Origin: a virus
Taxonomy: Duplodnaviria; Caudoviricetes
IMG/VR virus record: IMGVR_UViG_3300010167_000013
Reading direction: 5' to 3' (one strand)
Length of the DNA: 64,000 bases
This document shows, piece by piece, positions 12,371 to 59,200 of this stretch. Position 1 is the stretch's first letter. Each line of letters begins with the position of its first letter. The position numbers were made by a program, and so were the translations under genes. The notes beneath the pieces are model-generated. The model was given only the letters and a program-made list of their open reading frames with translations, had not been told where the DNA came from and searched no databases.

Positions 12371-13636
12371 TTATTTTATGAATTTATCGAACAGCGTCTT
12401 TGGTTTTATCTGCTCTTCTCTCTTCAGCTTTTGTATTTCCTTCTTCCGTGCTAGTATTTCATTGTACTCATGGTCTTCATTTGAAACATACTTCGATGAC
12501 TCATCTGTAGCTTTGGCTCTCCTCAACTCCTGAATCCTCTCTGCTATCTTCTTGGACCTATCATTGATTGGAGATAATCCAGATGCCACCAGGTACAGGA
12601 AGTTGTGAGCTTCTCCTTTGTCATTGACAGCGTTGTGATTGAATCTCTCAATCGGAGTACCAACGAAGTCACAGAGTTTCTCCAGCTTGGATTGGTAGAG
12701 CTTATTTACTTCCTGGGTGAAATACGATATGATTCCCCACTTTGCTACCCTCTTGTTCCGATCTGTCTCAGTGTGACATGACTGTTTGATGGCCTTGATA
12801 ATGATGTCGTCGATCGATGCATCTTCCAGTACTTTCTCTGTCAATCCTTTCTTTATTCTAGTAACTAAAAGTCTACCAGGTTCCTTGATGATACTCTCCA
12901 TGTCTGCCTTGTCTATCGAGTCATATGGAGTTGGGTAGTTGTCAATACATGTGAGTATTCTGAGATCTTCAACTATTCCATCATTCACAAGTTCAAGACA
13001 TTCGGTATCGGAGAATTGAGATCTGGTTTCATTGTCATAGATCATGTAGACGGTATCATCATCCAGATCATTGTACAATTCACTCAAGAACTCCTCTGTG
13101 TTCTGTTGATTACCCTCATTTGCTTGGATTTGAGGTAATACTGCAACTAGAATGAAATGAGTATCGGGGAAGCAATTTTTGAGAACATACATCAGTCCAG
13201 GTCCAGCCCCACTGCCAGTACCTCCAGCTGTAGATACCACAATGAAGACATATCTCTTTTCCTTGATGAGAGATTTGAAATCCTCTCTGGTAAGAATTAC
13301 ATCCAATTCCTCCCTGATGTAGTTCTTCATTTTGAATCGATTGGCACCAGTTCCCTCTATTTCATCCCTGTCACCAATTTTGAATTTGATGGTTCCTTCT
13401 CCAACCATTGACAGGTCTGTATCAGAGGTATTGATGTAGATAGTGTCGAATAAGTTGGAGTACCTCTGCTCCATGAGCCATGTTATTTGCGACCCACAAT
13501 TCCCTATTCCGATCATTGCAAATTCCTTCTTCATTTCTTTCCGTCCCTTCATTTTTGATGTTTTTATTCCCGATATTATTTTCAACATCGGAGATACGTT
13601 CTGGAGTTTGTACCAAGCATTACCATGTGAGTTCAC
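12371..13636 (-). CDS. tubulin/FtsZ-family GTPase (PhuZ/TubZ-like)
   Basis: IGIGNCGSQI, INTS, GTGANR, tubulin signature AGGTGSG, T7-like SIDKAD, helical C-terminal tail; start may instead be the ATG at 13534. Confidence 0.9.
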   Translation of the reverse strand: MNSHGNAWYKLQNVSPMLKIISGIKTSKMKGRKEMKKEFAMIGIGNCGSQITWLMEQRYSNLFDTIYINTSDTDLSMVGEGTIKFKIGDRDEIEGTGANRFKMKNYIREELDVILTREDFKSLIKEKRYVFIVVSTAGGTGSGAGPGLMYVLKNCFPDTHFILVAVLPQIQANEGNQQNTEEFLSELYNDLDDDTVYMIYDNETRSQFSDTECLELVNDGIVEDLRILTCIDNYPTPYDSIDKADMESIIKEPGRLLVTRIKKGLTEKVLEDASIDDIIIKAIKQSCHTETDRNKRVAKWGIISYFTQEVNKLYQSKLEKLCDFVGTPIERFNHNAVNDKGEAHNFLYLVASGLSPINDRSKKIAERIQELRRAKATDESSKYVSNEDHEYNEILARKKEIQKLKREEQIKPKTLFDKFIK

Positions 13637-13702: not shown

Positions 13703-13734
13703 ATAATATATAATCGAATAGAATTATATATTCT
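13703..13734. promoter_or_regulatory. back-to-back divergent phage promoters
   Basis: motif on - at 13703-13714 (tubulin operon) and on + at 13722-13734 (primase operon). Confidence 0.65.
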
Positions 13735-17140: not shown

Positions 17141-17155
17141 ATAACCTCCACACTA

Positions 17156-17168
17156 AGAATATATAATT
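17156..17168 (-). promoter_or_regulatory. phage promoter motif AATTATATATTCT
   Basis: exact consensus directly upstream of the GGAGG RBS of 17140. Confidence 0.7.
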
Positions 17169-38994: not shown

Positions 38995-39118
38995 CACAAG
39001 TTTTACTTGCACACAAGATGAGAATGGGAAACTAACAACATTGGATGAATGTCACTACTGTGAAAGACGTAATAAATGCGACGTGTTCGCCATGATGCTG
39101 AATGATTTACAGGAGTGA
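38981..39118 (+). CDS. small Cys-containing protein (45 aa, not in ORF track)
   Basis: MRNRDTSFTC...CHYC...C; fills the operon gap. Confidence 0.4.
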   Translation: MRNRDTSFTCTQDENGKLTTLDECHYCERRNKCDVFAMMLNDLQE

Positions 39119-39147
39119 TCTCATTGGAGTTTCCAGGAGGGTAATGT

Positions 39148-39546
39148 ATGAAACGAACTGCAATACAAGCTACACTGTACGACCCCAAGATTCAACACTT
39201 CTTTGAGAATTGGGTTATCGAATCAAACCTGAAGATAAAGTTCAACGTTGCCACATACTACATTGAATCAAAAAAGAGGAATAAATTTATCCTACTATTG
39301 AAGATGATTGGATTCAAAAAGATTGTGGACGAAAGAAGAATTCTTCGGGTTCTGACAAATCAGCCCGGGTATCTTCATGGAAAAGATGGAGCGTTGTTCA
39401 ACAGATATCGTACCATATTTACTGACAAGAAACACGTTCGAGATATTGACGATGTTGTTGTGATTGAAGTCAAAGATCAAGAACGTATACTCAAGGGAGT
39501 AAAGCGAAAGATAAACGATATGAACATGGAGTTCCAAATTAAATAA
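39148..39546 (+). CDS. hypothetical protein
   Basis: AGGAGG RBS, 132 aa. Confidence 0.65.
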   Translation: MKRTAIQATLYDPKIQHFFENWVIESNLKIKFNVATYYIESKKRNKFILLLKMIGFKKIVDERRILRVLTNQPGYLHGKDGALFNRYRTIFTDKKHVRDIDDVVVIEVKDQERILKGVKRKINDMNMEFQIK

Positions 39547-39583
39547 AAAAATAAACCGTGGTAATCCCACGGTTTATTTTTTT
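39545..39583. terminator. bidirectional terminator
   Basis: AAAAAAATAAACCGTGG-taatc-CCACGGTTTATTTTTTT. Confidence 0.8.
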
Positions 39584-39584
39584 C

Positions 39585-39980
39585 TCAATAGTCTTCTTCC
39601 TCGTCGTCGTACAACTCATCTTCGAATTCTTTGATGAATTTTTCTTCGAGTCTGGCTTTCTTCTTTTTCTTCATTGAAGAGTTTACCATCAATGCTGTAG
39701 CAACGGTACCCAGCCCAATAAGGAATCTATTACGATTTCTTATTCTGTTCCGATGTACCCTTGTCAGAATAACGTCGATAGTTGCACGTTCCTCTTCTGG
39801 TACAACATCATCCAAGATGATGGCTTCTTGTCCTCTCCTGGAATCATTTAGATCAGGATTCCTCAGCTTCCTAATCACTTGATGGAAGTACCTCTCAGGT
39901 GGTGGAAGAAATCCTTGAGTGACATAATCGACTATGTCATTCGTCTTCTCAAATACAACCTTCTTTGGATTGACTAACAT
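39585..39980 (-). CDS. hypothetical membrane-anchored protein
   Basis: FLIGLGTVATALMV helix followed by basic and acidic tails. Confidence 0.65.
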   Translation of the reverse strand: MLVNPKKVVFEKTNDIVDYVTQGFLPPPERYFHQVIRKLRNPDLNDSRRGQEAIILDDVVPEEERATIDVILTRVHRNRIRNRNRFLIGLGTVATALMVNSSMKKKKKARLEEKFIKEFEDELYDDEEEDY

Positions 39981-40041
39981 CCCACATTCACATCCTTTTC
40001 ATGAAATTTTATAAACTATGTATCACACACAAATAGAATAT

Positions 40042-40102
40042 GGCATCCCTCTCAGGTTCCTGTGGTTAGACAGGCTATATTTCCGATATGCCCTATCGTA
40101 CT
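40042..40102 (-). ncRNA. TnpB omegaRNA (reRNA) scaffold, unusually compact
   Basis: TACGATagggcatATCGGAaatataGCCTGT-ctaacc-ACAGGAA...GGGATGCC follows the IS200/IS605 right-end pattern; loop GGCAT can pair with terminal ATGCC (pseudoknot). Confidence 0.6.
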
Positions 40103-40148
40103 ATTGTGCTTCTAATTTATTACTCCTAGTTCATTATTAAATATATTT

Positions 40149-41279
40149 TTATCCTATTAATCGTAATCCTTCTTTGAGAATATTTTTAGCAGCATTGTAG
40201 TCTCTATGGTGTTGGATACCACAGCTATCACAGGTCCAATGTTTCAGCCTCAACCCAACATCACCACGATTACCACAATTATTACAGGTCGTACTGGATG
40301 GGTAATACCTATCAACTTTCTGTAGTGTTCTCCCATACCACTCGCACTTGTATTCCAGCTGTCTTACTAGTTCACCTAGGGCTGTGTCATATATCGACTT
40401 ATTGATATCCTTGTACTTGGTTTTCATGCTTTGGATATCTAAATCTTCAATACAGATAATGTCATTGGTGTTAACTAGTGAACTAGTAACTTTGTGTAAT
40501 GTGTCATATCTCTGGTTAGTGATCTTCTCATATATTTTAGCTACCTTGATCCTAGCCTTGTTCCAGTTCTTACTACCTTTTACTTTCCTAGACAGTACTC
40601 TCTGAGCATTAGCTAGCTTGAGTTCATACTGCTTCAGATGCCTGTGGTTTTTGTATGTCTTTCCATTTGATGTAGTAATCAGCTTATTGATACCCAAATC
40701 TAACCCAATGGAGTTACCTGTGATAGGTAGAACCTTTGGTTCTACATCAGTACAACAGATAGAACAGTAGTACTTTCCACTAGGTACCTGTGATATAGTA
40801 GCATTCAGAATCCTACCAGAGATGTCACACCTTCCTCTAAACTTTACACTACCAAGTTTTGGTAGCTTGACAAAGTTACTCACTATCTGAATGTTATTAC
40901 CAGCAACATATTTAGTAGTATAGGACATACTCCTGTTCTTCTTACTCTTGAACCTAGGATAGCCCAGAGTGTCACCTAACTTTACTTTCCTGAAGAAGTT
41001 CTGAAAGGCCATATCTAGATTCTGCAGCGATGCCTGCAGTGCATGGGCATCCGGTTCTTGTAACCATTCCAATTCCTTCTTCAGCTTAGTTAACTCCCTA
41101 CTACAGCTATTGTATGTCATATAGCTCTTCTTCTCTTCATAGGTCTTATTCTCTTCATAGGTCTTATTCCTAAGGCATAAGAAATGGTTCCAAATGTACC
41201 TGCAACAACCAAATGTTTTCTGTATCTGTATTTGCTGTGAGTCATTTGGGTATATCCTAAACTTGTACGATCTATTCAT
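40149..41279 (-). CDS. tnpB: RNA-guided endonuclease TnpB
   Basis: YKFRIYP HTH start, GYPRFKSK, RuvC D (GLDLG), E (IEDL), D (HRDYNAAKNI), CxxC..CxxC Zn ribbon; AGGAGGTG RBS before ATG 41279. Confidence 0.95.
   Translation of the reverse strand: MNRSYKFRIYPNDSQQIQIQKTFGCCRYIWNHFLCLRNKTYEENKTYEEKKSYMTYNSCSRELTKLKKELEWLQEPDAHALQASLQNLDMAFQNFFRKVKLGDTLGYPRFKSKKNRSMSYTTKYVAGNNIQIVSNFVKLPKLGSVKFRGRCDISGRILNATISQVPSGKYYCSICCTDVEPKVLPITGNSIGLDLGINKLITTSNGKTYKNHRHLKQYELKLANAQRVLSRKVKGSKNWNKARIKVAKIYEKITNQRYDTLHKVTSSLVNTNDIICIEDLDIQSMKTKYKDINKSIYDTALGELVRQLEYKCEWYGRTLQKVDRYYPSSTTCNNCGNRGDVGLRLKHWTCDSCGIQHHRDYNAAKNILKEGLRLIG
41133..41168 (+). repeat. 18 bp in-frame tandem duplication in tnpB
   Basis: CTCTTCATAGGTCTTATT x2, giving NKTYEE NKTYEE. 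Confidence 0.85.
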
Positions 41280-41301
41280 TATATTCTCACCTCCTACGTA
41301 T

Positions 41302-41345
41302 ATAATATATAATCGAGAAATATGCATATCTAAGAATATATAATT
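41302..41345 (-). promoter_or_regulatory. two tandem phage promoter motifs upstream of tnpB
   Basis: ATTATATATTAT at 41302-41313 and AATTATATATTCT at 41333-41345. Confidence 0.7.
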
Positions 41346-41422
41346 ACGTTTTACACTTCATTAGAAGTCTCCAGAACGAAGACATAAGTAATGACATCCC
41401 AATACCCAAGGAGGTTTCTATC

Positions 41423-42895
41423 ATGCCAAACAATAGATTGAGTGATAATCTACTCAGAGACTTATTTGTCTTTGATGATGAAAATAATCCGAAGAGTAGT
41501 CAGATAAGTAGAATATATCCACCAACAATACTGGATCAGGTATTCGACCATCTACATCCAACTCAAAAAAATCTGAGAGAAATACTTGCTGATCTTCGGT
41601 ATGAGATAATAACAGGTGGACTAGGCAATATCGAATTTCCAGTAACTACAGTGAATGGCAAGAGTGGGGATGTTACAGTAACGTCAAACGATGTTGGTCT
41701 TGGTAGAGTAGACAACACCTCTGATATAGATAAACCATTGTCAGTTCCACAGAGAAGCGCTGTGATGGATATATTGTCAGTCTACAACTTCAATATCAAC
41801 TTGGATCCATTGTATGAACACTTGAAGGATACCACTAACCCGCACAGTGTTTCTGTAGACGATTTGAATCTAAATGACAAATTAGTCAAATTTGCAGATG
41901 CTAGGGTTGGACTTCACAATCTTTCTACCAGTAGTAACACACATCCGGATATCAGGAGATTGCTATCCACATTGTGGGATAGGGTAGATGAGATTGATTT
42001 TGGCAGTTCTTCTGGTGGAAGTAGTGGAGGTAGTGGATCTGTAGCGAGTGATTTAGATGGTCATATCAAGGACAAGATGGCCCATTTCGATTTATTTGAG
42101 GGAAGAGAAAATACCAACAACAAGGCTATGATCTTTACTGCCACAATCGACAACAACCACACGATGTATCCAACTACTAGAGCAGTATCGGATTTTATTA
42201 CAGATAGACTTGTTGCGTTCAAGGATACATTACCAAAGATCAATGAATGGATATCAAATATTCAGGTTATCGATAATCAATCAGAACTTCCTGTTGCGAG
42301 CAGTGACAATTACAGACATGCATATATCATAACCAGAGGTCCAGACCCATTCGAGATCGAGAGTGCAATCGCAGTGTGTAGAAGAGATCCATCCGACATT
42401 TACTTCTGGGATATCAAAGGTACAGAAAATGTATCAATATTTGATCCGAAGTATTTCAAGAAAACGGTGAATGGATTATCGTTGGACATTCCAGCCATCC
42501 TAGATACTGACCCTGATGACGGAGAAGAAACAGTTTCCTTCTACGATGTGTTTCTGCGGTCAGTTCAAATACTTCCAGGAACAATGGACGGTCATATCAG
42601 ATATTCGGTCAACAATGATCCTAGTACAATGTCGGATGATGTAAAGATCCCAGGTCTCAATAGTCTTGCATACAGAGAGTGGATTACAGAGAATGAAATA
42701 AAAGAACTTGCTGTGCATGAAAAACATATTCTGAATAAAGCAGTTACTACTCGTACGATTGACGATAGAGCTGTTATAGCTCCAAAGATTTCATGTGCTA
42801 AGGGGAAGATAATAGGAAACCTTGTGAATAGTACAAGTACAGCTCATGAGATAACACTTGAAGAACTAGCGGACGCACTACGTTCACTAATATAA
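41423..42895 (+). CDS. tail-fibre-like structural protein
   Basis: VTTVNGKSGDV, VGLGRVDNTSDIDKPLS and NPHSV fibre motifs, shared with 56256-59261. Confidence 0.7.
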   Translation: MPNNRLSDNLLRDLFVFDDENNPKSSQISRIYPPTILDQVFDHLHPTQKNLREILADLRYEIITGGLGNIEFPVTTVNGKSGDVTVTSNDVGLGRVDNTSDIDKPLSVPQRSAVMDILSVYNFNINLDPLYEHLKDTTNPHSVSVDDLNLNDKLVKFADARVGLHNLSTSSNTHPDIRRLLSTLWDRVDEIDFGSSSGGSSGGSGSVASDLDGHIKDKMAHFDLFEGRENTNNKAMIFTATIDNNHTMYPTTRAVSDFITDRLVAFKDTLPKINEWISNIQVIDNQSELPVASSDNYRHAYIITRGPDPFEIESAIAVCRRDPSDIYFWDIKGTENVSIFDPKYFKKTVNGLSLDIPAILDTDPDDGEETVSFYDVFLRSVQILPGTMDGHIRYSVNNDPSTMSDDVKIPGLNSLAYREWITENEIKELAVHEKHILNKAVTTRTIDDRAVIAPKISCAKGKIIGNLVNSTSTAHEITLEELADALRSLI

Positions 42896-42919
42896 GTTTT
42901 TGAGGAGAGGCCGTGACAA

Positions 42920-45900
42920 ATGATGATGTACAAGTTGGAGAAAGACATATCCCTCTACAAAAATCAATTCGAAGATCTCGTTCTAAATATCTTCCAACGA
43001 CATCTCATGGAAAGACTGTCTATGGATCTTGATGGGTTGTTATTCAGAATAAAATACATGGTGAAGAACGATAAAGATCTAACGAAGCTTCCAGAAATGA
43101 AAAATCAATTCATTTCAAAGGCGCTAGAACTGAGAAGCATCTTCGGAGAAATCATGTACAATTTTCTGGTTGAACTAGTGGGATTCGGAGATAACTTCTC
43201 GAAAGACGATATCGAAGATCTCATGGCTCAAGATGTGAAAATGGATAATGTTCATGTGAGATTCAAAATGCTACTGTTGTCAGAGAATAAGAATTACCTG
43301 GATTATGTTGATGCCAGTATCGAAGATGGAAAAGTGTTCAATATGTTTCCAGATAAGTTCTTCAGGTACTATGTTGACTCATACAATGATGGGATAGCAA
43401 AAGCATATCCAGAATTATTTGAATCTAGACAACAAGACAGCATTGGTACAGGACATGATTCTGAAGTGTTCGTTCATTCTATGACCCTACAAACAACTGA
43501 GGATTGTAATCTCAACTGCTTTCCAGCTGGGACTAAGATCCTTATGGAAGATTTTTCTCACAAGAATATAGAAGATATAGAATTGGGAGACACAGTATTG
43601 GGGTTTGAAGAATTTAATGAATTCCAGCACCAAAGAAGTTTAATATCTACCATAGTTACCCAGTTATTTCACCATGATGAAAGCTGCTACAAGATTAGTC
43701 ATCCATCTTTTAAAGAGGATTTATATGTTACCCCGGAACATCCAATGCTTACAGCCCGCGGAGATTGGATACATGTCCGAGATCTTCGACCATCTGATGG
43801 GTTGCTAATGACAACATTTGACCCTGATGATTATTATCATACTAATGTTGATCATATCAACTATGTGAAAGGATACTTTATAGCTGGATGGCTCGGAGAT
43901 GGTTGTGTTATGAAACGTACCCAAAAAGATGGATATCGGCGATATTTCATGCGTTTTGTGGTCAAAGATATAGACATGACTGAACGAATGAAACGCTTCT
44001 CTGAAACTCTTGGGTTTAATTTCACAACGAATACTTTCAAGATGTCGCACAAAGATGGCTGTTATCGAGATACTTTATATTCAGGCAAGAGAGATGAGTA
44101 CGAAAGATGGGTCAAGCTATGTGAAGAGACATTTTCGGACAAACAAGCACTGAAGGATCCTGATTTTCTAATGGGATTCATGGCTGGATTTTATGATGCT
44201 GAAGGTGGTATCTGGGGTGCATGTATTAGGATTCACAACTCAGATAATAAACTCCTCCGCATTGTGGAGGCTGGTCTTAATTTTCTGAAAATAAAATGGG
44301 ACTATGATAAACCTCACCAGCCAGCTAATAAAATTGTATACACTCTTCGAATATTAGGCGGGTCACCAGATGTCCTAAAGTTTCTGAAATCCACCAGACC
44401 TGCGATTAAGAGGAAAGGTTCAGTCAATTTAGTTGGTAAGAGTTTATTCCAACGTATTGATGGATACACCATCGAGTATGCAAAATATGCAAAAACAGTG
44501 TATAATTTTGAGACGACGGAGCATACTTATATTGCTAACAGACTCCTGGTACACAACTGTAGCTACTGTTATATGTTCAACAAGAGTGATATGAGAATGA
44601 CCTTCGATATAGCCAAGAAATTCATTGATGAGTTATTGGCAGATAGATATGGTTACATCAATCGGTACAACTCTCCAGCGCTGATATTGGAGTTCATAGG
44701 TGGAGAGCCTCTGCTAGAAATTACATTGACAAGAAAAATCTACGAATACTTTCTGGACAGAACGTATGAATTGGAGCATCCATGGTTTAATCTTCACAGA
44801 CTCTCAATATGCTCCAATGGGCTACAATACTTTGATGAAGAAGTTCAATCGTTCTTCAGGGATTATGCCGGTAGTATATCATTCAATATATCCATAGACG
44901 GAAACAAGGAGTTGCATGACTCCTGTAGAATCCAGCCAAGTGGAGAAGGGAGTTATGATATCGACATGATTGCACTTAATCACTTCAACAGACACCATAC
45001 TCCAGAAAGAAATTCTAAAATGACTTTGGCTCCAGACAACATGAGATACTTATTTGATTCAGTAAAAAGCTTCATCGAAAATGGAATGATGACCATCAAC
45101 CTGAATTGTATTTTCGAGGAGGGATGGAACCAAGAAACAGCTCTTCTGGAATACAATGAATTGAAAAAGGTTGCCGATTACATTCTGGAAAATGATCTGG
45201 AGAATTTGTACATTGCTATCTTCAACGAGAGACAAGAAGATACATCAGAAAAGTCATATGACGGGAATTTCTGTTTCAAGGATGGTACTCAGGTGTTAGC
45301 TATCGATGGCCATCGTAACATAGAAGACCTGAATATCAATACTCTCTTGTACACTGCATCTGGTAGCATTCATAAAATTGTCAACATCAGTCAAAGGAAG
45401 TCTAGGAGTAATATGAAGATACATACTTCTGGAACATTTCCTATTGAATGCACTCGTGATCACAAGATATTTGCAAGAAAGATGATCCAAGAAAAAGGAG
45501 AAACATACTACGAAAAACCAGAATTTTATGAAGCTTCAGAACTTGTCGAAGGAGACTCAATCGCTCTTCCAATTCTAGATCTGTCACAGAATAAAAAGAA
45601 TTGGATAAACAACAACATCGCATATGCTCTTGGGGTATACTTACTATGTGGAACGATTAGTATGAATCGCATTGTGGTACCAGTCGATCCAGATAACAAG
45701 GTAGATGTTCGTGAGCATTTTCAGAGAGCCGGACTAAACATAACGACCGACAGACCTGACAGAGTAGAAATATATCGCCAAAAGTCAGAGCTGAACGATA
45801 ACTTCTTCAAACTATGTCTGAGGGCTGGAATTAGACCGAATGTCAAATCAGTTCCACAGATATTATTTGAATCCAAGAAGGATATAATTCAGGCCATGAT

Positions 45901-47866
45901 CAATGGATACTTCCAGGCAGGCGGATTTCAAGTAGCAGAAGGGAAAAACCATGAAGGGTTATTGAAAATAAGCATCATATCGAGACATCTGGCAAATGAT
46001 TTACTAATCCTCCTGAGATCTGTCAATCAATATCCAATATGCACCATGAGTCAAAAACCAATCACAATTGATGTAGATGGATCTAAGATGTCGTTCGATG
46101 AATCATATGGGATATCATATAACCCAATCAACTCATACCTGAAAGATCATTATGAGATAGATCAAGATCACTATGTCGCATGGGTTGGTATCAGATCAAT
46201 TGCATTTGTAAATGACGAATGGGAAGTTTTCTGTCCTACCGTAATGCCGATAAATGAAGGTGAAAAAGAAGAGCACACTATCATTGCAAACAATGCTGCA
46301 GTGAACCAATGTTTTCGTGGTGACATGCAAGTGTTGACGATCAATGGGAGCAAGAATATCAGAGACCTTCATGTTGGAGAACTATTGTATACTGCATCAG
46401 GTAGTATTCACAAAGTAACAAGAATGACAAAACGGTTCAATGAAAGTAATAGGAAGGTAACAGCAGCTGGAATTTTTCCAATTCATTGCACTGATGATCA
46501 CAAGGTATTTGCTAAAAAATTTCTATATATGGGATGGAAAGGTGTTCTTCACTATTCAGACCCAGGGTTCTACCCTATTTCGGAATTGAAGAAAGGTGAT
46601 AGAATGGCACTACCTATACTTCAATTACCAGAAAAACAAGTAGAAAAATGGTTGACTGAAGAACTAGCATATGCATTTGGAGTATATCTTGCAGATGGTC
46701 ATGGTTACACAGATAGTATAGTTATTACTCCAGGATATGATGACGACAAGAGTTACATGAATATGCTCAGAGGGTCTGGACTAACAATAAGTGTGAGTGA
46801 AATGCGTACCAGCATGAGGTATGATATTCACAAAAATTCATCTGAAGCAAATAGAAAGTTTATCGAACTATGTCTGATGTCTGGTGTTACATCCTGGACC
46901 AAACATATCCCAGAAACTATTTTCAACTCACCAAAGAATATTGTCCAGAAAGTTCTTGATGGATACCTGGAAACTGATGGATGGCAAGTTCCAGAAGATA
47001 AACATATTGCAGGAATGATCAAAGTCAATACGGTCTCTCAACATCTTGCTAGTGATATTCTAGTTCTTCTACGAGCTGTCGGAGAGTACCCTACTTGTTA
47101 CCTAAATAACAGGGCTGGTACTATGATCATTGAGGGTAGAACTGTAAATGTGCGAGATCGATATGAAATATATTATAACCCGACTAGGCCCAATGGGAAT
47201 AATATGTTTAAGAATGATGATCAATATAGTCTGATGTGGACAGGGATCAGAGATATTCAAAATGATGAAAACTATGATGTATATTGTCCTACAGTATCCC
47301 CTCTCACAAACGACCTAAAAGAAGAGCATTCCATAATTGTTAATGGTCTCGGTGCCCAGAACTGCGGCGGGACTGGAGCAATGTTATCATTAAGACCAAA
47401 TGGACAGTTCTATCCATGTATCAGATACATGCCATCTTCTGTTGGAGATAATGTAGATGATCTTTGCATTGGGACTGTGCAAGATGGAATGGTAGGAAGG
47501 GAAGAAAACTCTGAGGTTCTAAAATTATTAGACAGTGTAACACGTAGATCTCAATCTAATGATATATGTTATAAGTGTCCTATTGGAAATGACTGTGCTC
47601 ATTGCTCAGCGATGTCGCAGACAGTTTATGGAACTCCTAACAAAAAAGGATCTTTCATTTGTATTCAGATGATAGCAGAAGCACTAGCAAATGTTTATTA
47701 TTGGAATAGATTGTTGATTCATAAACCTCATTACGATCTTCCAGTTCGCAAGAATAATGTTCCTGACGAATGGTCGTTACTAGTGGTAGATGAAGTAGAA
47801 TTAGAAAACTTAAAGCTTCTTGAATGTATGGCGATGATCAAAAAAATAGAATACAGTGGGACTTAA
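42920..47866 (+). CDS. radical SAM/SPASM maturase (CXXX-repeat-target type) with three inteins; 604 aa after splicing
   Basis: spliced CNLNCSYC motif; FIGGEPLLE; SIDG..HD..R; spliced NFCGGTG...YPCIRY; C-terminal CYKC..CAHC..C cluster. Confidence 0.9.
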   Translation: MMMYKLEKDISLYKNQFEDLVLNIFQRHLMERLSMDLDGLLFRIKYMVKNDKDLTKLPEMKNQFISKALELRSIFGEIMYNFLVELVGFGDNFSKDDIEDLMAQDVKMDNVHVRFKMLLLSENKNYLDYVDASIEDGKVFNMFPDKFFRYYVDSYNDGIAKAYPELFESRQQDSIGTGHDSEVFVHSMTLQTTEDCNLNCFPAGTKILMEDFSHKNIEDIELGDTVLGFEEFNEFQHQRSLISTIVTQLFHHDESCYKISHPSFKEDLYVTPEHPMLTARGDWIHVRDLRPSDGLLMTTFDPDDYYHTNVDHINYVKGYFIAGWLGDGCVMKRTQKDGYRRYFMRFVVKDIDMTERMKRFSETLGFNFTTNTFKMSHKDGCYRDTLYSGKRDEYERWVKLCEETFSDKQALKDPDFLMGFMAGFYDAEGGIWGACIRIHNSDNKLLRIVEAGLNFLKIKWDYDKPHQPANKIVYTLRILGGSPDVLKFLKSTRPAIKRKGSVNLVGKSLFQRIDGYTIEYAKYAKTVYNFETTEHTYIANRLLVHNCSYCYMFNKSDMRMTFDIAKKFIDELLADRYGYINRYNSPALILEFIGGEPLLEITLTRKIYEYFLDRTYELEHPWFNLHRLSICSNGLQYFDEEVQSFFRDYAGSISFNISIDGNKELHDSCRIQPSGEGSYDIDMIALNHFNRHHTPERNSKMTLAPDNMRYLFDSVKSFIENGMMTINLNCIFEEGWNQETALLEYNELKKVADYILENDLENLYIAIFNERQEDTSEKSYDGNFCFKDGTQVLAIDGHRNIEDLNINTLLYTASGSIHKIVNISQRKSRSNMKIHTSGTFPIECTRDHKIFARKMIQEKGETYYEKPEFYEASELVEGDSIALPILDLSQNKKNWINNNIAYALGVYLLCGTISMNRIVVPVDPDNKVDVREHFQRAGLNITTDRPDRVEIYRQKSELNDNFFKLCLRAGIRPNVKSVPQILFESKKDIIQAMINGYFQAGGFQVAEGKNHEGLLKISIISRHLANDLLILLRSVNQYPICTMSQKPITIDVDGSKMSFDESYGISYNPINSYLKDHYEIDQDHYVAWVGIRSIAFVNDEWEVFCPTVMPINEGEKEEHTIIANNAAVNQCFRGDMQVLTINGSKNIRDLHVGELLYTASGSIHKVTRMTKRFNESNRKVTAAGIFPIHCTDDHKVFAKKFLYMGWKGVLHYSDPGFYPISELKKGDRMALPILQLPEKQVEKWLTEELAYAFGVYLADGHGYTDSIVITPGYDDDKSYMNMLRGSGLTISVSEMRTSMRYDIHKNSSEANRKFIELCLMSGVTSWTKHIPETIFNSPKNIVQKVLDGYLETDGWQVPEDKHIAGMIKVNTVSQHLASDILVLLRAVGEYPTCYLNNRAGTMIIEGRTVNVRDRYEIYYNPTRPNGNNMFKNDDQYSLMWTGIRDIQNDENYDVYCPTVSPLTNDLKEEHSIIVNGLGAQNCGGTGAMLSLRPNGQFYPCIRYMPSSVGDNVDDLCIGTVQDGMVGREENSEVLKLLDSVTRRSQSNDICYKCPIGNDCAHCSAMSQTVYGTPNKKGSFICIQMIAEALANVYYWNRLLIHKPHYDLPVRKNNVPDEWSLLVVDEVELENLKLLECMAMIKKIEYSGT
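43517..44557 (+). mobile_element. intein 1 with LAGLIDADG endonuclease (347 aa)
   Basis: CFPAGT...TPEH...AGWLGDG...GFYDAEG...VYNFET...LVHN|C. Confidence 0.95.
45272..46309 (+). mobile_element. intein 2, Gln-terminal, degenerate endonuclease (346 aa)
   Basis: CFKDGT...TRDH...GVYLLCG...GYFQAGG...VFCPTV...AVNQ|C. Confidence 0.85.
46310..47362 (+). mobile_element. intein 3 with LAGLIDADG endonuclease (351 aa), fused directly to intein 2
   Basis: CFRGDM...TDDH...GVYLADG...GYLETDG...VYCPTV...GAQN|C. Confidence 0.9.
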
Positions 47867-48905: not shown

Positions 48906-51900
48906 ATGATACGAAACCGAGATTATAAAGGAACATGTCATAATGGAGGTGATTGCGTGAATAGGGATTTATACTCGAATACAGAGTTTACCAAATTGAA
49001 GGAAGACTTGAATAAAGAAATAAAAAGACGGGCCACATTCAAGTGGTGGGACCCACTAGCTACTCCAAAGGTAGGACAGGATAGATCATCCCCATTATCG
49101 TTACCTGATATCGGAAAAAGAATGTTGGTAACAGATGAAACTTACACCATCAACAATTCTTCTGAGGGATCTATTGAATGTACTAGAAACATACACTATC
49201 CTGCTCATGGGGAGAATCCTTCTGGAGAGATACCAAATACCCCCTTGAATAACAAAGAAGGACAACTCAAGACTTCCGCTGCCAGATTAGATGCCGATGA
49301 GATAAAAAACTATCTGGTTGGATTGTCGAAGATAATGGACATAAATCTTTTCTATGGAAGAGATGAAGTTCCTGGCACTGCATTTCGTGATCCTATTGGA
49401 ATAGAGAATGCATTGAAAGCTGCTCAGAATAGCAAGCTGAATGCTCCACTTCATCAATCTGATATTGAACCAGCAAGAATAGATCCTAGCAAGGAAGATC
49501 TAACTGTTGTAACATATCATATTGATGGTGGGATATATGTAATGCCATCTGGAGAATACGATGGGGAGGAACTATTGAAGAAGATGGGTCCTGATGAAAC
49601 CAACTTCTTTGATGATCACGGAGCTAAGGTATATGATACCGGGAAGAAAACTCCTGATGGACAACCTATTTTGGTAAGTGATTCTAACTACAAGCCAATG
49701 AATCCGTTTGTATCTCCTCTTGTTAATAGAAACTGGAATGATCAACAGAATAGTCGTGAAGATCTTCCAACCAAAAGAGAAGAGGGTGGAGTTCCATCTA
49801 CTAGGTTTGGCCCTAATCCTAGAAATCCTCAGCAGGGAAATCAGTACAGACCTAGACCTGTATTCGGCGGAGTTCTTGGAGCATGTAATTCATCGTGCAC
49901 AGGATTATGTTTTAAGACATGTGATAATGAATGCAGTGAGAATTGCACTACAACGTGCTGGTCTAGATGTGGCAACGCTTGCACGTCAAGCTGCGGGAAT
50001 GTCTGTACCGGGTGCAACTCGATGTGCTATACCTCCTGTAAAACTAAATGCGAAAATAGCACGGGATATTCATGCCTGAATGTTGGAGCCAAGACAGTAA
50101 ACATAGTTCCTGTTGGTAGTGCTCACGGATCATCTGGTGCACCGGGATCAGCTACCTGGCCAAAAAACACAATATCATATACTACCTACAAATGTAATGG
50201 TTGCGCATATACATGTCAATTCTACCCGAATAAACGTACCACATGTTGGGATGCAGGTTGTCAGGAGTTATGTTTCACGTCATGCAGAACAGCATGTTCC
50301 ACAACATGCTTTGGAGGATGTATAGATAACGCTGCTCAGGATACTGGGAAGTACGGAACTGGAAAAGGCCGTGGATGTTCTAGTGGATGTACTGTCAACT
50401 GTGTAGGAGCTTGTCAAGGAGTATGCATAGGCGAATGCGTTCACACATGCTTCCATGCATGCAAGGCGTTATGCTACGATAACTGTTCGTGGAAATGTCA
50501 TACCAGCTGTGGATCCGGTTGTGCCAATGGATGTAAAAACGGATGTACTGGATGTCACTCAACATGCGCTGGTAGTTGTATTGGAGAAAACAATGCATCC
50601 ATATGTATTGGATGTGGAAAATCTGGTGGATGTACATCTACATGCCAACATGATTGCAATAAGAATTGTATCGGCTGGGGATGTAGATCAATATGTGGAA
50701 CAGAATCGGCTGGATCTTGTGAATCTAATTGTCGTCTGAGTTGTATGTCATCTTCATGCACTTCAATGTGTGGAAATGCTTGTGCGTCTCAATGTACAAC
50801 ATGTGTGAATAACTGTGGAGCTCAATGCGGGTGTTGTTCATCGATGTGTAGCACTGGATGTGAAGCTGCATGTAATATTACATGCACTGAAGAATGTCAG
50901 AATGCATGTACTACATATTGTTACATGTCATGCACTGAATCCTGTGGAAGTTGTTTCAAAGCAGGTACATTAATAGAAACTGAACTTGGACTTGTCCCCA
51001 TCGAGGAGGTTAAAGTAGGGGATATGGTTTTAACACAAAGCGGAAAATATCATAGAGTTTATAAAAATTTTGTAAGAGAAGCTAATGATATTATCTCTAT
51101 TAGAGCAGTAGGAACTCCAATAATTCATACCACAGAAGAACATCCGTTCTGGGTTAAGAAATATATTGGCTTAGGAAAAAAAGAAGGGAAACTTCAACAG
51201 TTGTATTCAGATCCAGAATGGGTGGAAGCTAGAGATCTTAAATCTCGTGATAAATTATCATTGTATACACCTCCAATTGGAAATATTGAAGTTGATCCTG
51301 GTATAGCTTATATGGTCGGAAGGTGGCTTGGAGACGGATGGAGAAGCGATGAAAAAAGCCATAATGGACAATATTATCCAAGGTTTAGTATTTGCTGTGG
51401 AAAACATGAAATAGATGATTTCGAACTTAAATTATATCAATCTAATATTGAATATACTAAATCTACTAAAGAGACATCAGATAATTATAGGATACCATCT
51501 ATGATTACCAGGGATAGGTATTGGTGTAATAATGATGAACTTATTTCAATCCTAAAAGAATGCGGAAAATATTCTTATGGTAAAAAAATAAGTAAAGAAA
51601 TTTACAATTGGAATATAAATTCATTGATGCATTTACTTCAAGGGTATTCTGATGCAGATGGACATTTCGATGAAGATCATTCATCAATTGTAATCTCAAC
51701 TGTAAGTAAAGAGCTTGCTCTTGGAGTATCAACTATTATGAGAATGATTGGAAGAAATCCATCATGCCATGTGAAAGAATATCCTACCGGCAAAATGTAT
51801 ATTGAAGGCCGTGAAGTTAACGTAAGAACTGTATACACTTTAAAAATGTTTACGGGAGAATATACCAGAAATTATTCTGAATATGATTATGATAATAATA

Positions 51901-52784
51901 CGACATGGTCTAGTGTTAGATTAGTAAATATTCCGGATGATTCATATACTGTATATAATTTATCAGTAGAAGACAATCCAACATTCTATGCTGATGGAGT
52001 TTTGGTTCATAATTGCTCGGATATGTGCTATTCATGTGTTGGAATGTGCATCGGTATTTGTTCGGTGAAATGTGAGAACGGATGTTCATCGTGTGATACC
52101 AACTGTGGATGGTGGTGCGACTCTACATGCAACAGACAATGTTTCAATAATTGTAGCGACAGATGCATCAGCACATGCAGTGGATCATGTAGTACTTACC
52201 TTGAAGCTAATACAACCACACCACTCTCTGGTCCAGAGAAACCACCAACATCAGAAGGATATCAAACACCAAATCCATCAGATAGAGAAGAAGAAAGAGA
52301 ATCATTCAAATTAATCTCCTCTGATGTAAAACCAAAACCACCAGTAACACCACCTGGTGAAAAAGATTACTTGGTCCATGTATTCGCTGATAAAGATAAC
52401 AACTTCCAAGTTGTATCTCCGTATGATGTGATAAAATGGATGATTCACTCAACAGTTTGCATCGGTGGAGTGTGGAGCATATACGAGGATACTGGAGAAG
52501 TATTTGCTGTAAGTGCTGCACTATCTGCAACACTGGTCCAAATGTATCCGAACATCGATGGTGGTAGAGGAATTATATTGATAACTCTGTTTGATAATCC
52601 TGAGTTCCCAATTAACCCATTCAAGGATATCTATGTTGAACTTCCAAGAAATCTTGAATACAAGATAATTCCAAACGTAGAAGGAGACATCATAATTCTA
52701 ATCCAGAGAGAATCCTTTGGACCATTCGAAACTGTCATTGACGAATACGGAAAGATGAGATTTATTCAAGGAATCAGGGAGTGA
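48906..52784 (+). CDS. giant Cys-Xaa-Xaa-Xaa repeat protein (putative rSAM target) with one intein
   Basis: ~89 Cys by hand count in ~415 extein residues, mostly CxxxC; non-Cys N- and C-terminal domains; likely start is GTG 48957 after GGAGGTG. Confidence 0.85.
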   Translation: MIRNRDYKGTCHNGGDCVNRDLYSNTEFTKLKEDLNKEIKRRATFKWWDPLATPKVGQDRSSPLSLPDIGKRMLVTDETYTINNSSEGSIECTRNIHYPAHGENPSGEIPNTPLNNKEGQLKTSAARLDADEIKNYLVGLSKIMDINLFYGRDEVPGTAFRDPIGIENALKAAQNSKLNAPLHQSDIEPARIDPSKEDLTVVTYHIDGGIYVMPSGEYDGEELLKKMGPDETNFFDDHGAKVYDTGKKTPDGQPILVSDSNYKPMNPFVSPLVNRNWNDQQNSREDLPTKREEGGVPSTRFGPNPRNPQQGNQYRPRPVFGGVLGACNSSCTGLCFKTCDNECSENCTTTCWSRCGNACTSSCGNVCTGCNSMCYTSCKTKCENSTGYSCLNVGAKTVNIVPVGSAHGSSGAPGSATWPKNTISYTTYKCNGCAYTCQFYPNKRTTCWDAGCQELCFTSCRTACSTTCFGGCIDNAAQDTGKYGTGKGRGCSSGCTVNCVGACQGVCIGECVHTCFHACKALCYDNCSWKCHTSCGSGCANGCKNGCTGCHSTCAGSCIGENNASICIGCGKSGGCTSTCQHDCNKNCIGWGCRSICGTESAGSCESNCRLSCMSSSCTSMCGNACASQCTTCVNNCGAQCGCCSSMCSTGCEAACNITCTEECQNACTTYCYMSCTESCGSCFKAGTLIETELGLVPIEEVKVGDMVLTQSGKYHRVYKNFVREANDIISIRAVGTPIIHTTEEHPFWVKKYIGLGKKEGKLQQLYSDPEWVEARDLKSRDKLSLYTPPIGNIEVDPGIAYMVGRWLGDGWRSDEKSHNGQYYPRFSICCGKHEIDDFELKLYQSNIEYTKSTKETSDNYRIPSMITRDRYWCNNDELISILKECGKYSYGKKISKEIYNWNINSLMHLLQGYSDADGHFDEDHSSIVISTVSKELALGVSTIMRMIGRNPSCHVKEYPTGKMYIEGREVNVRTVYTLKMFTGEYTRNYSEYDYDNNTTWSSVRLVNIPDDSYTVYNLSVEDNPTFYADGVLVHNCSDMCYSCVGMCIGICSVKCENGCSSCDTNCGWWCDSTCNRQCFNNCSDRCISTCSGSCSTYLEANTTTPLSGPEKPPTSEGYQTPNPSDREEERESFKLISSDVKPKPPVTPPGEKDYLVHVFADKDNNFQVVSPYDVIKWMIHSTVCIGGVWSIYEDTGEVFAVSAALSATLVQMYPNIDGGRGIILITLFDNPEFPINPFKDIYVELPRNLEYKIIPNVEGDIIILIQRESFGPFETVIDEYGKMRFIQGIRE
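50952..52013 (+). mobile_element. intein 4 with LAGLIDADG endonuclease (354 aa)
   Basis: CFKAGT...TEEH...GRWLGDG...GYSDADG...VYNLSV...LVHN|C. Confidence 0.95.
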
Positions 52785-56255: not shown

Positions 56256-59200
56256 TTAGCTGAGAGAGTCTTTCCACATTACCACTTTATTTGGATCTGG
56301 TGCAATTCCTTTATCGAACGATACCATAGTAGATACATCGATATCTCCAGGAGTACCAGGAGTCCATCCTCCACCTTCTCCAGGAGTCATATACTCTGCT
56401 ATCATTTGCATGATAGTTTCTCTGACCCATTTGGTATCTGGAATCTGCCTATTGTCTGCCATTGGACTAGGTCTTACACTGACAGTTGGAGTTCCATGCA
56501 AGTTAAGATTATGAACCAACTTCTCAGAAGTTATCGTGTCATTGGCAATGAAGTCTCCAGTGACCATCAGATACTCTGGGGGAGCATTTGGTTTAGTGGC
56601 ACCTAGTACTCGATATGAATAGTTACTCCTGAACAGTTTATCCTTGGTGACTGCAAGATCTTCTATCATATCAGTTGTAACCTGCAGCCAATCTGGATCA
56701 ACATCCAACACTGATGTTACAGCCAATACTCTGTTTGGCACCGTAGATGTGAATAACTCTGTGCCGCCAACAGCTCTTGGGGCAATATTATTTGACCTAA
56801 TAGTCCAGTCCATTATGTGGTTATGATGAACCGTCTTATCCTGCAAATGTTCGGCCCATACAGATCCTTCTTTGAGCTGAAGTCTATCTATAGTTCTGGT
56901 CTGTATCATTTCTCCAGTTACTTGCAACCATGCTGGATCTGTTCCAAACAATGGATTTACAGCAAGCACCCTATATGGGAATGAAGAAGTAAACATGTTA
57001 GTCCCATTTACCGCTCTACTGGCTATCATACTACTAGTGACCTGAGTCCAAGTAGGATCAGTATTGGATCCAACAACAGCCATTACCCTATTTGCTGTAG
57101 ATGAACTTTGTAATTTATTTGCTGGGATGGAACGATTTTCAATATGATTTCCAGCAATGATATTATCTAGAAGCATTTGTTTATTGATCCTGGTGTAGAT
57201 CGGATTACCATCATCTTCTACGGCAGCAAGAACTCTATTTCCATCCTTTGACTTCCACATCTTAGCAGAAGTAACTGCATCATTTACTATGTTATTTGTT
57301 TGAACGATGTTATTCGTGAGGTGTCTAGATAGAATAGCTCCATCTGATATCTTGTCTGCAGTAACACTCAAATCCGTCAGATGGGGTGTGTTTACAGAAT
57401 TAAGACCCATCATCGAAGTGTTTACTGTACCCCAAGCAGGATCACCATTTGCAGTGTAGACGCCAAGTATTCTGTTTGGAGTAGGTGATGTGAATAGAGC
57501 TTTCCCATCTACAGACCTTGGAGCAATATTCTCTGCGCTTATCTCAATAGCATCAAGCTGATCTTTCACCCACTTAGTATCGGGTATTTGGTTATTGCTA
57601 GAGACGGATGCAGGCCTGATACCTATCTTGGGGGTTCCTGGCAGAAGTATATCATCTTCAATTTTCACACTTGTTACACTCTTCGTTGCCAGCTTATCTG
57701 CGCTAATAGCTAACGGGGCTATCTTAATCCCAGTAACAGACAGATCGTTCATCTTATCGGTTGTCACAGATAGATCTTCTAGTTTCCCAGTTGTCACATT
57801 GAGATCCATGATATTATTAGTTCTCACAGCACCATGTGAAATCATGTCACTATTGACTTGCATCCAGATGGGATCTGATCCTACTGCATTTACTCCAAGC
57901 ACTCTATTCGCAACAGAAGATGAGAATAACTTTTTCCCAGTAACTGCTCTGTCGGCTAGCTTAGTGGTAGTTACAGATAGCCCTTCTAGCTTCTCAGTAG
58001 TAATACTATCGTCTGCCAATTTAATTGTAGTGATAGATAGATCTTTGATCTTGGTTGTGGTAACAGAATTAGTAGCAAGTATTCGTTCAATAACTGCACC
58101 GCTAGAAATAAGATCTTCCGTGATACTTCCAGAATTAATTGTGGCACTGATGATCTGCTCTCCAGTGATTTGATCCCCGTCTACCACAAGAGTGATATTT
58201 GTTTCCACACTACCCAAGTATCTGATGAATAAATCCTTCAGATCAACTCTCTGGTCACTACCGCTGAGTTTAGTCAATACAAACTCTTTGGTCATACTAT
58301 CATAGTGAGCGTCATATATTAATCCATTGATTGGAATGAATAACGTGATAATACTTCCATCCTTCAAGTCAAGTGTTAGATTACCAGACGTTTGATTGTA
58401 GGATGCACCAACAACAAAATTAGTGTCACCTAGATCAGTACTAATGTTGTTGATAATCGAATTGACTATATCTAACGCTGCTTGAGTTTTATCTGATATT
58501 GGCTTGTCTAAATCGGATGTGTTGTCAACATTACCTAATCCAACCTGAACCTTCGACACTTGATGAGGGTTATCATAATTATCTGTGTGAAATTCAAATG
58601 CATCACTACTGACACCATTCAGCTGTGATAGAGTTACTGCATGTGGATTATCAAAATTACTGAGATGATTGCCAAGTTTTGTTGATGTGATAATCAGGTC
58701 ACCTTGGACATCACTTTCTAAATTATCTATTCTATCCGTGATGATATCGATAGCCTCTGTAGTAGCTTTCTGTGTCATGAAACCATCATCATTCAGTCCA
58801 AGATCCTGATAAGTCTCTGGACGTCCGACAATATCTACCCATCTTATCTTCATTCCAGAATCCGGATCGATGCTTCCATCCTCGTCTATTATCCCAAGCT
58901 TGACTAGTAATTCTCCAATAGCTTTTTCAGTTGGAATTTTGGAATGACTTTGAGATGAAGGATCGGATGGAATACTTTTACTGATCTGGATAGCCCCAAC
59001 AGCACCTGGGCTTCCGGCAAATGTCATCAGATAGTTAGCAGGTTTTGCTGCAAATATCGGTTGTTTTATTTCTAACTCTTTGTGGATATGATCAAGGATT
59101 TCTTCCAGAGTTATAGAGTCTTCCTTGTTCATTTCAGCTCTAACCGCTTTGAACACAGTAATAGGAAATGTTTCCTTGAAGTTTAGATTTGGAGGAGGTG

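Follow-up and report, generated by a model that had tools for sequence, protein, structure and literature searches.

A tnpB-only cassette inserted into a putative early promoter of an uncultured gut phage is a candidate RNA-guided homing element

SegF, SegB and Mob are free-standing homing endonuclease genes of T-even phages. The cassette described here shares with them that a selfish nuclease gene with its own promoter lies between conserved phage genes, and its action would likewise fall on co-infecting relatives. The T-even nucleases read their target through protein and tell alleles apart by substitutions, whereas here the target would be read through RNA and the alleles would differ by the presence or absence of the insert. 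In IS200/IS605 transposons, the left-end (LE) and right-end (RE) hairpins are the sites bound by the transposase TnpA. Homing by IS605 TnpB is established and extends to TnpA-independent spread among plasmid copies, while the case of co-infecting phages is theoretical (2026 review, PMC13565253). Such spread of IS605 elements in plasmid populations is termed 'non-restorative homing' (PMC11870625). As outlined there and in the review (PMC13565253), the nuclease cuts a co-resident empty copy and repair copies the element. The same mechanism is proposed here, with the difference that it was reported for plasmids and is predicted for the present phage. The TnpB2 nuclease of ISGst2 from Geobacillus stearothermophilus is guided by RNA to sites that are empty or that its element has vacated, and by cutting them it keeps or spreads the element (PMC10055086); we propose likewise for the phage cassette. 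ISGst2, however, still has all parts of a transposon, including TnpA, the hairpin ends and the end motif TTCAC, none of which the cassette has. ISDra2 TnpB with its omegaRNA (PMC8612924, PMC10097598) has in common with the phage system the domain order, the RuvC D-E-D triad and the zinc finger, as well as a guide RNA (predicted for the phage) encoded where the gene ends and a pseudoknot ending 2 nt ahead of the guide. The distance from the pseudoknot partner to the guide differs (about 105 nt in ISDra2 and about 55 nt here), and the phage cassette, unlike ISDra2, is without tnpA and end hairpins and resides in a phage promoter. A literature search found no paper showing TnpB homing between co-infecting phages.

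The cassette lies in a 64,000-nucleotide stretch (hereafter the window) of the IMG/VR record IMGVR_UViG_3300010167_000013, which is part of a 178,815-bp contig. The host genome of the cassette appears to be that of an AR9/phiKZ-like uncultured gut phage of about 179 kb. A PhuZ-like tubulin gene (12371-13636), divergent from a DNA primase gene, fits such a phage, and back-to-back early motifs lie between these two genes at 13703 (minus) and 13724 (plus). Searching GenBank phages with window positions 39000-43000 by megablast returned no match, and a pattern scan of IMG/VR with the neighbour proteins returned no relatives. The locus is laid out as follows:

41423-42895, plus strand: divergent fibre-like gene, the conserved left flank (PHROG tail fibre matches, synteny)
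41333-41345, minus strand: complete putative early-promoter motif AATTATATATTCT (P1) at the left junction, now preceding tnpB
41333-41339, minus strand: left repeat copy ATATTCT, with the junction AATTAT/ATATTCT-tagat; both flanks overlap the ancestral intergenic region
about 40040-41337/41339, minus strand: the cassette, in the bounds of the best explanation
40149-41279, minus strand: intact tnpB, 376 aa, with RuvC D-E-D triad and CxxC...CxxC zinc finger
40035-40041, minus strand: right repeat copy ATATTCT, with the junction gggatgcc/ATATTCT-atttgtg; remnant 3' part of the small gene's ancestral promoter
39585-39980, minus strand: small conserved gene, 131 aa, with orthologues in four related phages (22-47% identity)
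39545-39583, unstranded: bidirectional terminator hairpin that closes the minus-strand unit

For the fibre-like protein, about 100 homologues were found at 40-52% identity, and many lie on gut-metagenome contigs of 100-300 kb. At 490 aa it is shorter than most of these (~645 aa), and its alignment to a 656-aa relative covers residues 1-495 and stops there, so this phage is without a C-terminal domain of about 160 aa. Intein and LAGLIDADG signatures split two large proteins (42920-47866 and 48906-52784), one of which is a radical SAM protein with two Hint regions, and the radical SAM gene of related phages is unsplit at 602 aa. The neighbourhood of the cassette is rich in selfish elements. A second related phage (P0124 contig, sample ERZ27257304) has in the place of the small gene a 311-aa gene with a weak RNase H match, divergent from the fibre-like gene of that phage.

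Comparison with related phages identifies the tnpB cassette as an insertion into a promoter motif. The insert covers 1298 bp (40042-41339) and is bounded by the 7-nt direct repeat ATATTCT; on the minus strand, both junctions read as they had been described in the original prediction. The accompanying claim that excision of 40042-41339 restores the promoter motif was borne out as well. Excision leaves an intergenic region of 144 nt, which aligns without gaps over the motif to four related phages (L045, L050, L051 and L053). These phages have the same divergent pair, a fibre-like homologue and a small minus-strand gene, separated by empty-site intergenic regions of 125-156 nt without tnpB, and an uninterrupted TTATATATT(A/C)T lies exactly at the insertion point of the window. 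After in-silico excision, the TTTCGTTC box, the TTATATATT(A/C)T motif and the ribosome-binding site are in register with all four relatives, and the position of P1 relative to the conserved TTTCGTTC box matches that in the same phages. The empty-site arrangement is known from distant relatives only, with neighbour proteins at 45-52% identity. The reverse history, in which an ancestral gene was lost in the relatives, was rejected, as the four relatives keep an unbroken promoter and the insert is a transposon-family gene.

The 7 nt common to both junctions fit more than one insertion register by sequence, and the empty site is identical in every register. Such a repeat is unexpected for IS200/IS605 elements, which insert 3' of a short target motif and duplicate no target, and homing does not explain it either. 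It could be a chance identity between the first 5 nt of the left end and the flank, or it could stem from microhomology capture between promoter copies. The left end could also have been remodelled after insertion, rebuilding an early promoter; the left junction has 16 nt in common with the promoter at 17153-17168.

The motif that received the insertion is abundant in the window. Allowing up to one mismatch, TTATATATTCT occurs 22 times against 4.3 expected, and no shuffle reached 22. Among the 15 exact copies of TATATATT[AC]T, at least 10 sit 15-65 nt ahead of a start codon in the right orientation. The motif precedes small genes and replication genes in a strand-oriented manner, and the related phages have it as well. 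In the form AATTATATATT(A/C)T, it is identical at 12 of 13 positions to the early consensus of Bacillus phage AR9, AAATATATATTAT-(6N)-G. The AR9 promoter was mapped experimentally, is read by the injected virion RNA polymerase and tolerates little deviation (PMC5312081). The window motif is very likely an early promoter. No RNA polymerase gene was found in the 64-kb window, so we infer this assignment from the motif. Two further elements lie between P1 and the start of tnpB:

41302-41312, minus strand: second motif copy TTATATATTAT (P2), 22 nt ahead of the tnpB start and next to the ribosome-binding site
41295-41288, minus strand: ribosome-binding site AGGAGGTG of tnpB

Both the second motif copy and the separate ribosome-binding site had been claimed for tnpB and are present at these positions. 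Relatives have a looser AT-rich stretch, gagaatatata, in the place of P2. Early expression of tnpB, which had also been proposed, is plausible because of the near-identity with the AR9 early consensus. The insertion left only gccATATTCT in front of the small gene, and no site resembling a terminator was found on the minus strand in the stretch from tnpB to the small gene. For both reasons the small gene is probably transcribed by read-through from the tnpB promoters. On the side of the fibre-like gene, the TTTCGTTC box at 41374-41381 (minus cTTCGTTC; plus GAACGAAG) is kept in the window and in L045, L050, L051 and L053. It lies ~40-50 nt ahead of the fibre-like gene, which is on the other strand. 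In the plus-strand reading of the window, the box is AACG-(6N)-TA. The similarity to AACA-(6N)-TA/G, the late promoter of AR9, makes it a candidate late promoter.

The encoded protein is a complete TnpB. The Pfam domains PF12323, PF01385 and PF07282 (HTH_OrfB_IS605, OrfB_IS605 and Cas12f1-like_TNB) score above cut-offs, and the match to the ISDra2 TnpB structures 8bf8/8h1j (E 2.5e-86) spans the entire protein. The acidic RuvC residues named in the original prediction are D, E and D in LDLG, IEDL and RDYN, and all three align with D191, E278 and D361 of ISDra2. Both CxxC pairs of the zinc finger are in place. Judged by these residues, the TnpB nuclease looks active. Its closest relatives are 50-55% identical. 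One of these families is exemplified by L054 (P0022 family), a 54-kb contig bearing an integrase, on which two distinct tnpB genes (3001-4113 and 5746-6918) lie 1.6 kb apart, each with its own scaffold type. The window gene also has an internal duplication:

41133-41168, minus strand: 18-nt tandem duplication in tnpB, encoding NKTYEE twice, a 6-aa insertion relative to ISDra2

The duplication is perfect, and contigs L048 and L049, from the same phage in two other samples, end in or beside it. These contig ends may reflect copy-number variation or an assembly break.

Downstream of the open reading frame, the cassette ends in a putative guide-RNA scaffold with the following elements:

40040-40098, minus strand: compact 3' core of the candidate omegaRNA scaffold, parallel to relatives element by element, with covariation of loop and 3' strand
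40098-40084, minus strand: hairpin 1 of the core, with the loop GGGCA
40074-40059, minus strand: stem 2 of the core (CCTGT/ACAGG)
40056-40048, minus strand: mini-hairpin CCT-gag-AGG of the core
40045-40042, minus strand: 3' strand of the pseudoknot, TGCC, followed by A and T
40024-40039, minus strand: predicted 16-nt guide ATTCTATTTGTGTGTG, identical to the sequence flanking the cassette on the right (from the spacing of the pseudoknot and the rules for IS605/TnpB)

The order is that of the relatives, namely hairpin 1, the linker gaaatata, stem 2, the mini-hairpin, two bases, TGCC, A and T. Loop and 3' strand covary, with GGAAC:GTTC, GGAAT:ATTC and GGACA:TGTC in relatives and GGGCA:TGCC in the window. 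The folding energy of the scaffold is no better than that of shuffles (z -0.5), and the support for the scaffold is homology. We regard this compact scaffold with its conserved pseudoknot as a putative functional guide-RNA core. In the ISDra2 structure, the pseudoknot occupies -6 to -2 and a single base at -1 stands ahead of the guide (PMC10097598). The pseudoknot-to-guide spacing was compared by script across scaffolds. The hairpin-1 loop pairs with bases -6 to -3 in 15 of 19 distinct scaffolds of two related families, and a shift by +2 was seen in none. The spacing of GGGCA:TGCC fits only a scaffold end at 40040 (...TGCC-A-T), and the guide would therefore begin at 40039. The boundary originally predicted lies 2 nt earlier, leaves no spacer and would put the 16-nt guide at 40026-40041; a boundary past the whole repeat leaves seven bases. 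The use of the right flank as guide was thus retained, but the seed given as ATATTCT is shortened at its start by 2 nt to ATTCT. The seed had also been called part of the promoter consensus, which takes in only 5-7 nt of the guide, the rest being specific to the locus.

The sequence ahead of the left junction offers two candidates for the TAM, a short motif that TnpB requires next to its target:

41343-41340, minus strand: TAM candidate TTAT at the left junction
41342-41338, minus strand: TAM candidate TATAT at the left junction, the bases preceding the boundary in the pseudoknot register

In ISDra2, the TAM TTGAT is read by Y52, S56, K76, F77, Q80, T123 and N124 (PMC10097598). We compared the five of these that align cleanly (Y52/S56/K76/F77/Q80) across TnpB proteins:

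ISDra2: Y S K F Q; TAM TTGAT, measured
TTGAA-type relatives: K N K F T; TAM TTGAA, from flanks
L054, a member of the P0022 family: Y S A S Q; TAM TTA[T/C], from flanks
window TnpB: Y S A H Q; TAM predicted

The Lys-Phe pair tracks a G at TAM position -3 across the compared proteins. In the window TnpB, Y56, S60 and Q82 are conserved (readers of T at -1 and A at -2), and the Lys that reads G at -3 is replaced by Ala, as in the P0022 family. With Ala/His in the place of K76/F77 of ISDra2, the TAM of the window is not expected to be TTGAT. Twelve independent LE flanks of the P0022 family read TTA[T/C] directly ahead of the element, and ISGst2 TnpB2 uses TTTAT (PMC10055086), which is close to either candidate. 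Because the readers of T at -1 and A at -2 are kept, the Lys is lost, and the P0022 flanks and ISGst2 agree, a TAM ending in T-A-T (TTAT or TATAT) is well supported as a prediction. The TAM of about TTAT proposed in the original prediction fits the TAM-reading residues and the P0022-family flanks. A register shifted by +7, with a right end of ...ATATTCT and a TAM of ATTCT, was rejected, as it places C at TAM -2 although the A-reading Gln is conserved, and it leaves 5 nt too many between pseudoknot and guide.

The cassette has lost the parts that would make it a transposon. In agreement with the claim that tnpA is missing, tblastn with three TnpA queries found no Y1 tnpA in the 64-kb window of the 179-kb genome, and the window contains a single copy of the cassette and no second tnpB. 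An LE hairpin was not found in the window, where the start codon lies just 60 nt from the junction, and the place of the RE hairpin is held by the 3-bp mini-hairpin CCT-gag-AGG. In the TnpB relatives from IMG/VR (46-50% identity), the left end follows TTGAA and has a hairpin of the type CCCATTAGC-ttta-GCTGATGGG, and a matching right-end hairpin is found with the terminus GTTCAC. In the P0022 family, which is 53-55% identical and mostly from Oscillospiraceae, the hairpins have equivalents, tnpA is often present and the right end is GTGTCAA. The cassette is, by this comparison, a tnpB-only, IS200/IS605-derived element without transposase-binding end hairpins, in which the putative guide-RNA core was kept. 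A search of Rfam at E up to 1 yielded no omegaRNA or intron family, with weak chance matches on the terminator only, so an IStron is not indicated. The cassette might still be mobile in trans if the host or another part of the phage genome supplied a Y1 transposase, given that the tnpA search took in 64 kb of the genome and that relatives in both TnpB families often carry the gene. We consider continued mobility of this kind highly improbable, since the hairpins bound by TnpA are absent, the mini-hairpin replaces the RE hairpin, the window holds a single copy, and the position is identical in all assemblies.

Retention of the nuclease and of the guide-RNA core instead points to RNA-guided cutting, and we favour on balance that a tnpB-only cassette entered the early promoter of the small gene, from where its RNP, the complex of TnpB and guide RNA, would cut the empty site of siblings, leading to homing without TnpA or to the exclusion of the rival allele. 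In the proposed mechanism, P1 and P2 would act as early promoters that transcribe tnpB, the scaffold, the flank and, probably by read-through, the small gene. TnpB would trim its own transcript into a guide RNA with a guide of about 16 nt that equals the right flank. The RNP would recognise ATTCTATTTGTG... directly behind a TAM with the end TAT (TTAT or TATAT) and, during co-infection, would cut a cassette-free sibling in the leader of the small gene. Recombinational repair from the carrier genome might then copy the cassette in, as TnpA-independent, non-restorative homing, or else the rival allele would be excluded. The TAM joined to the right flank occurs only in a genome without the cassette, so the RNP should cut the empty allele and spare the carrier, which is predicted to be immune, as its own target is preceded by the scaffold end ...GCCAT in the place of the TAM. 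No near match to the target was found elsewhere in the window, the closest 20-mers having three mismatches. The closest of the other matches to the empty site (58721-58740, plus strand) lies inside a tail-fibre gene, has one of its three mismatches at the first guide base and is probably due to chance.

The overlap between target and promoter motif raises the question of whether the RNP would act on promoters more generally. Seed matches of 8-9 nt at other promoters had been claimed in the original prediction and are real at 13724, 23835 and 27250, but they consist mostly of the motif itself plus one or two chance bases. The RNP might dwell on early promoters of its own phage or of an incoming relative and modulate them without cutting. 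Such a role as an RNA-guided regulator would be akin to that of TldR, which is likewise phage-borne, RNA-guided and targeted to a promoter (a predicted target for the window TnpB). The TAM and the first 5-9 guide bases make up the 3' half of the early promoter, phage-encoded TldR regulators exist, and nuclease-dead TnpB gave many off-target ChIP peaks with a common TAM (PMC10055086). TldR, however, lost the RuvC active site, and the window TnpB keeps all three residues and is hence not of the nuclease-dead TldR type. There is no longer match in the window than those of the motif, and no sign of selection for such binding, which makes a regulator very unlikely. A related idea starts from the same overlap, in which the 3' half of a promoter for the virion polymerase supplies both the TAM and the beginning of the guide. 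The RNP could inspect every early promoter, own or incoming, as an early promoter-directed weapon or brake that competes with the injected polymerase or cuts at longer matches. We regard this as a long shot; if true, the cassette would be more than a single-site homing element.

The distribution of the cassette bears on whether homing is still in progress. The suggested search for an empty allele succeeded in the four distant relatives and failed among close siblings. This phage is represented by five assemblies from at least four samples (among them ERZ27257304, ERZ27257295, SRR10512951 and JGI 3300010882), and the cassette is present in each, at the same position. The exact 16-mer and 20-mer of the empty site had 25 and 7 matches in IMG/VR and JGI metagenomes, all in unrelated contexts. 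With no empty sibling found and the cassette in every assembly, the sampled population may no longer offer the nuclease a target. The GC content of tnpB (38.5%) equals that of the window (38.7%), and TnpB relatives have about 30% or about 51%, which argues for an old resident and also fits a relic. The cassette is old and apparently fixed. It could be a passenger that once homed or transposed in, swept to fixation and has nothing left to cut; it would be kept as the source of the only working early promoter of the small gene, or simply because there was too little time for decay. The lost end hairpins agree with this, as do the matching GC content, the lack of a terminator between the genes and the remnant gccATATTCT, which departs from a promoter type that tolerates little change in AR9. 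The scaffold, whose activity is predicted, is much shorter than those of relatives and has a mini-hairpin of 3 bp, which also counts against homing. Yet the 376-codon open reading frame is intact with all catalytic and zinc-finger residues, the pseudoknot pairing was kept through compensatory change relative to other families, and tnpB has two promoter copies and a strong ribosome-binding site. We see a fixed relic as unlikely, though as a serious alternative to homing. The cassette may have homed so successfully that few targets are left, or it may be a relic that persists because the small gene depends on its promoters.

The insertion is real and well supported, and the mechanism in the original prediction is plausible. 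The cassette does not represent a novel type of system but adds a well-documented case to a class of homing elements that is already known. It provides a natural test case for transposase-free TnpB homing between co-infecting phages, and the empty site can be reconstructed exactly, which makes a homing test simple. With ~40 nt less than in relatives and no transposon-end hairpin, the guide-RNA core may interest engineers of small TnpB editors. Should the phage form a nucleus-like compartment, at which the PhuZ-like tubulin hints, the cassette also poses the question of how an early nuclease would reach the DNA of a co-infecting phage inside.
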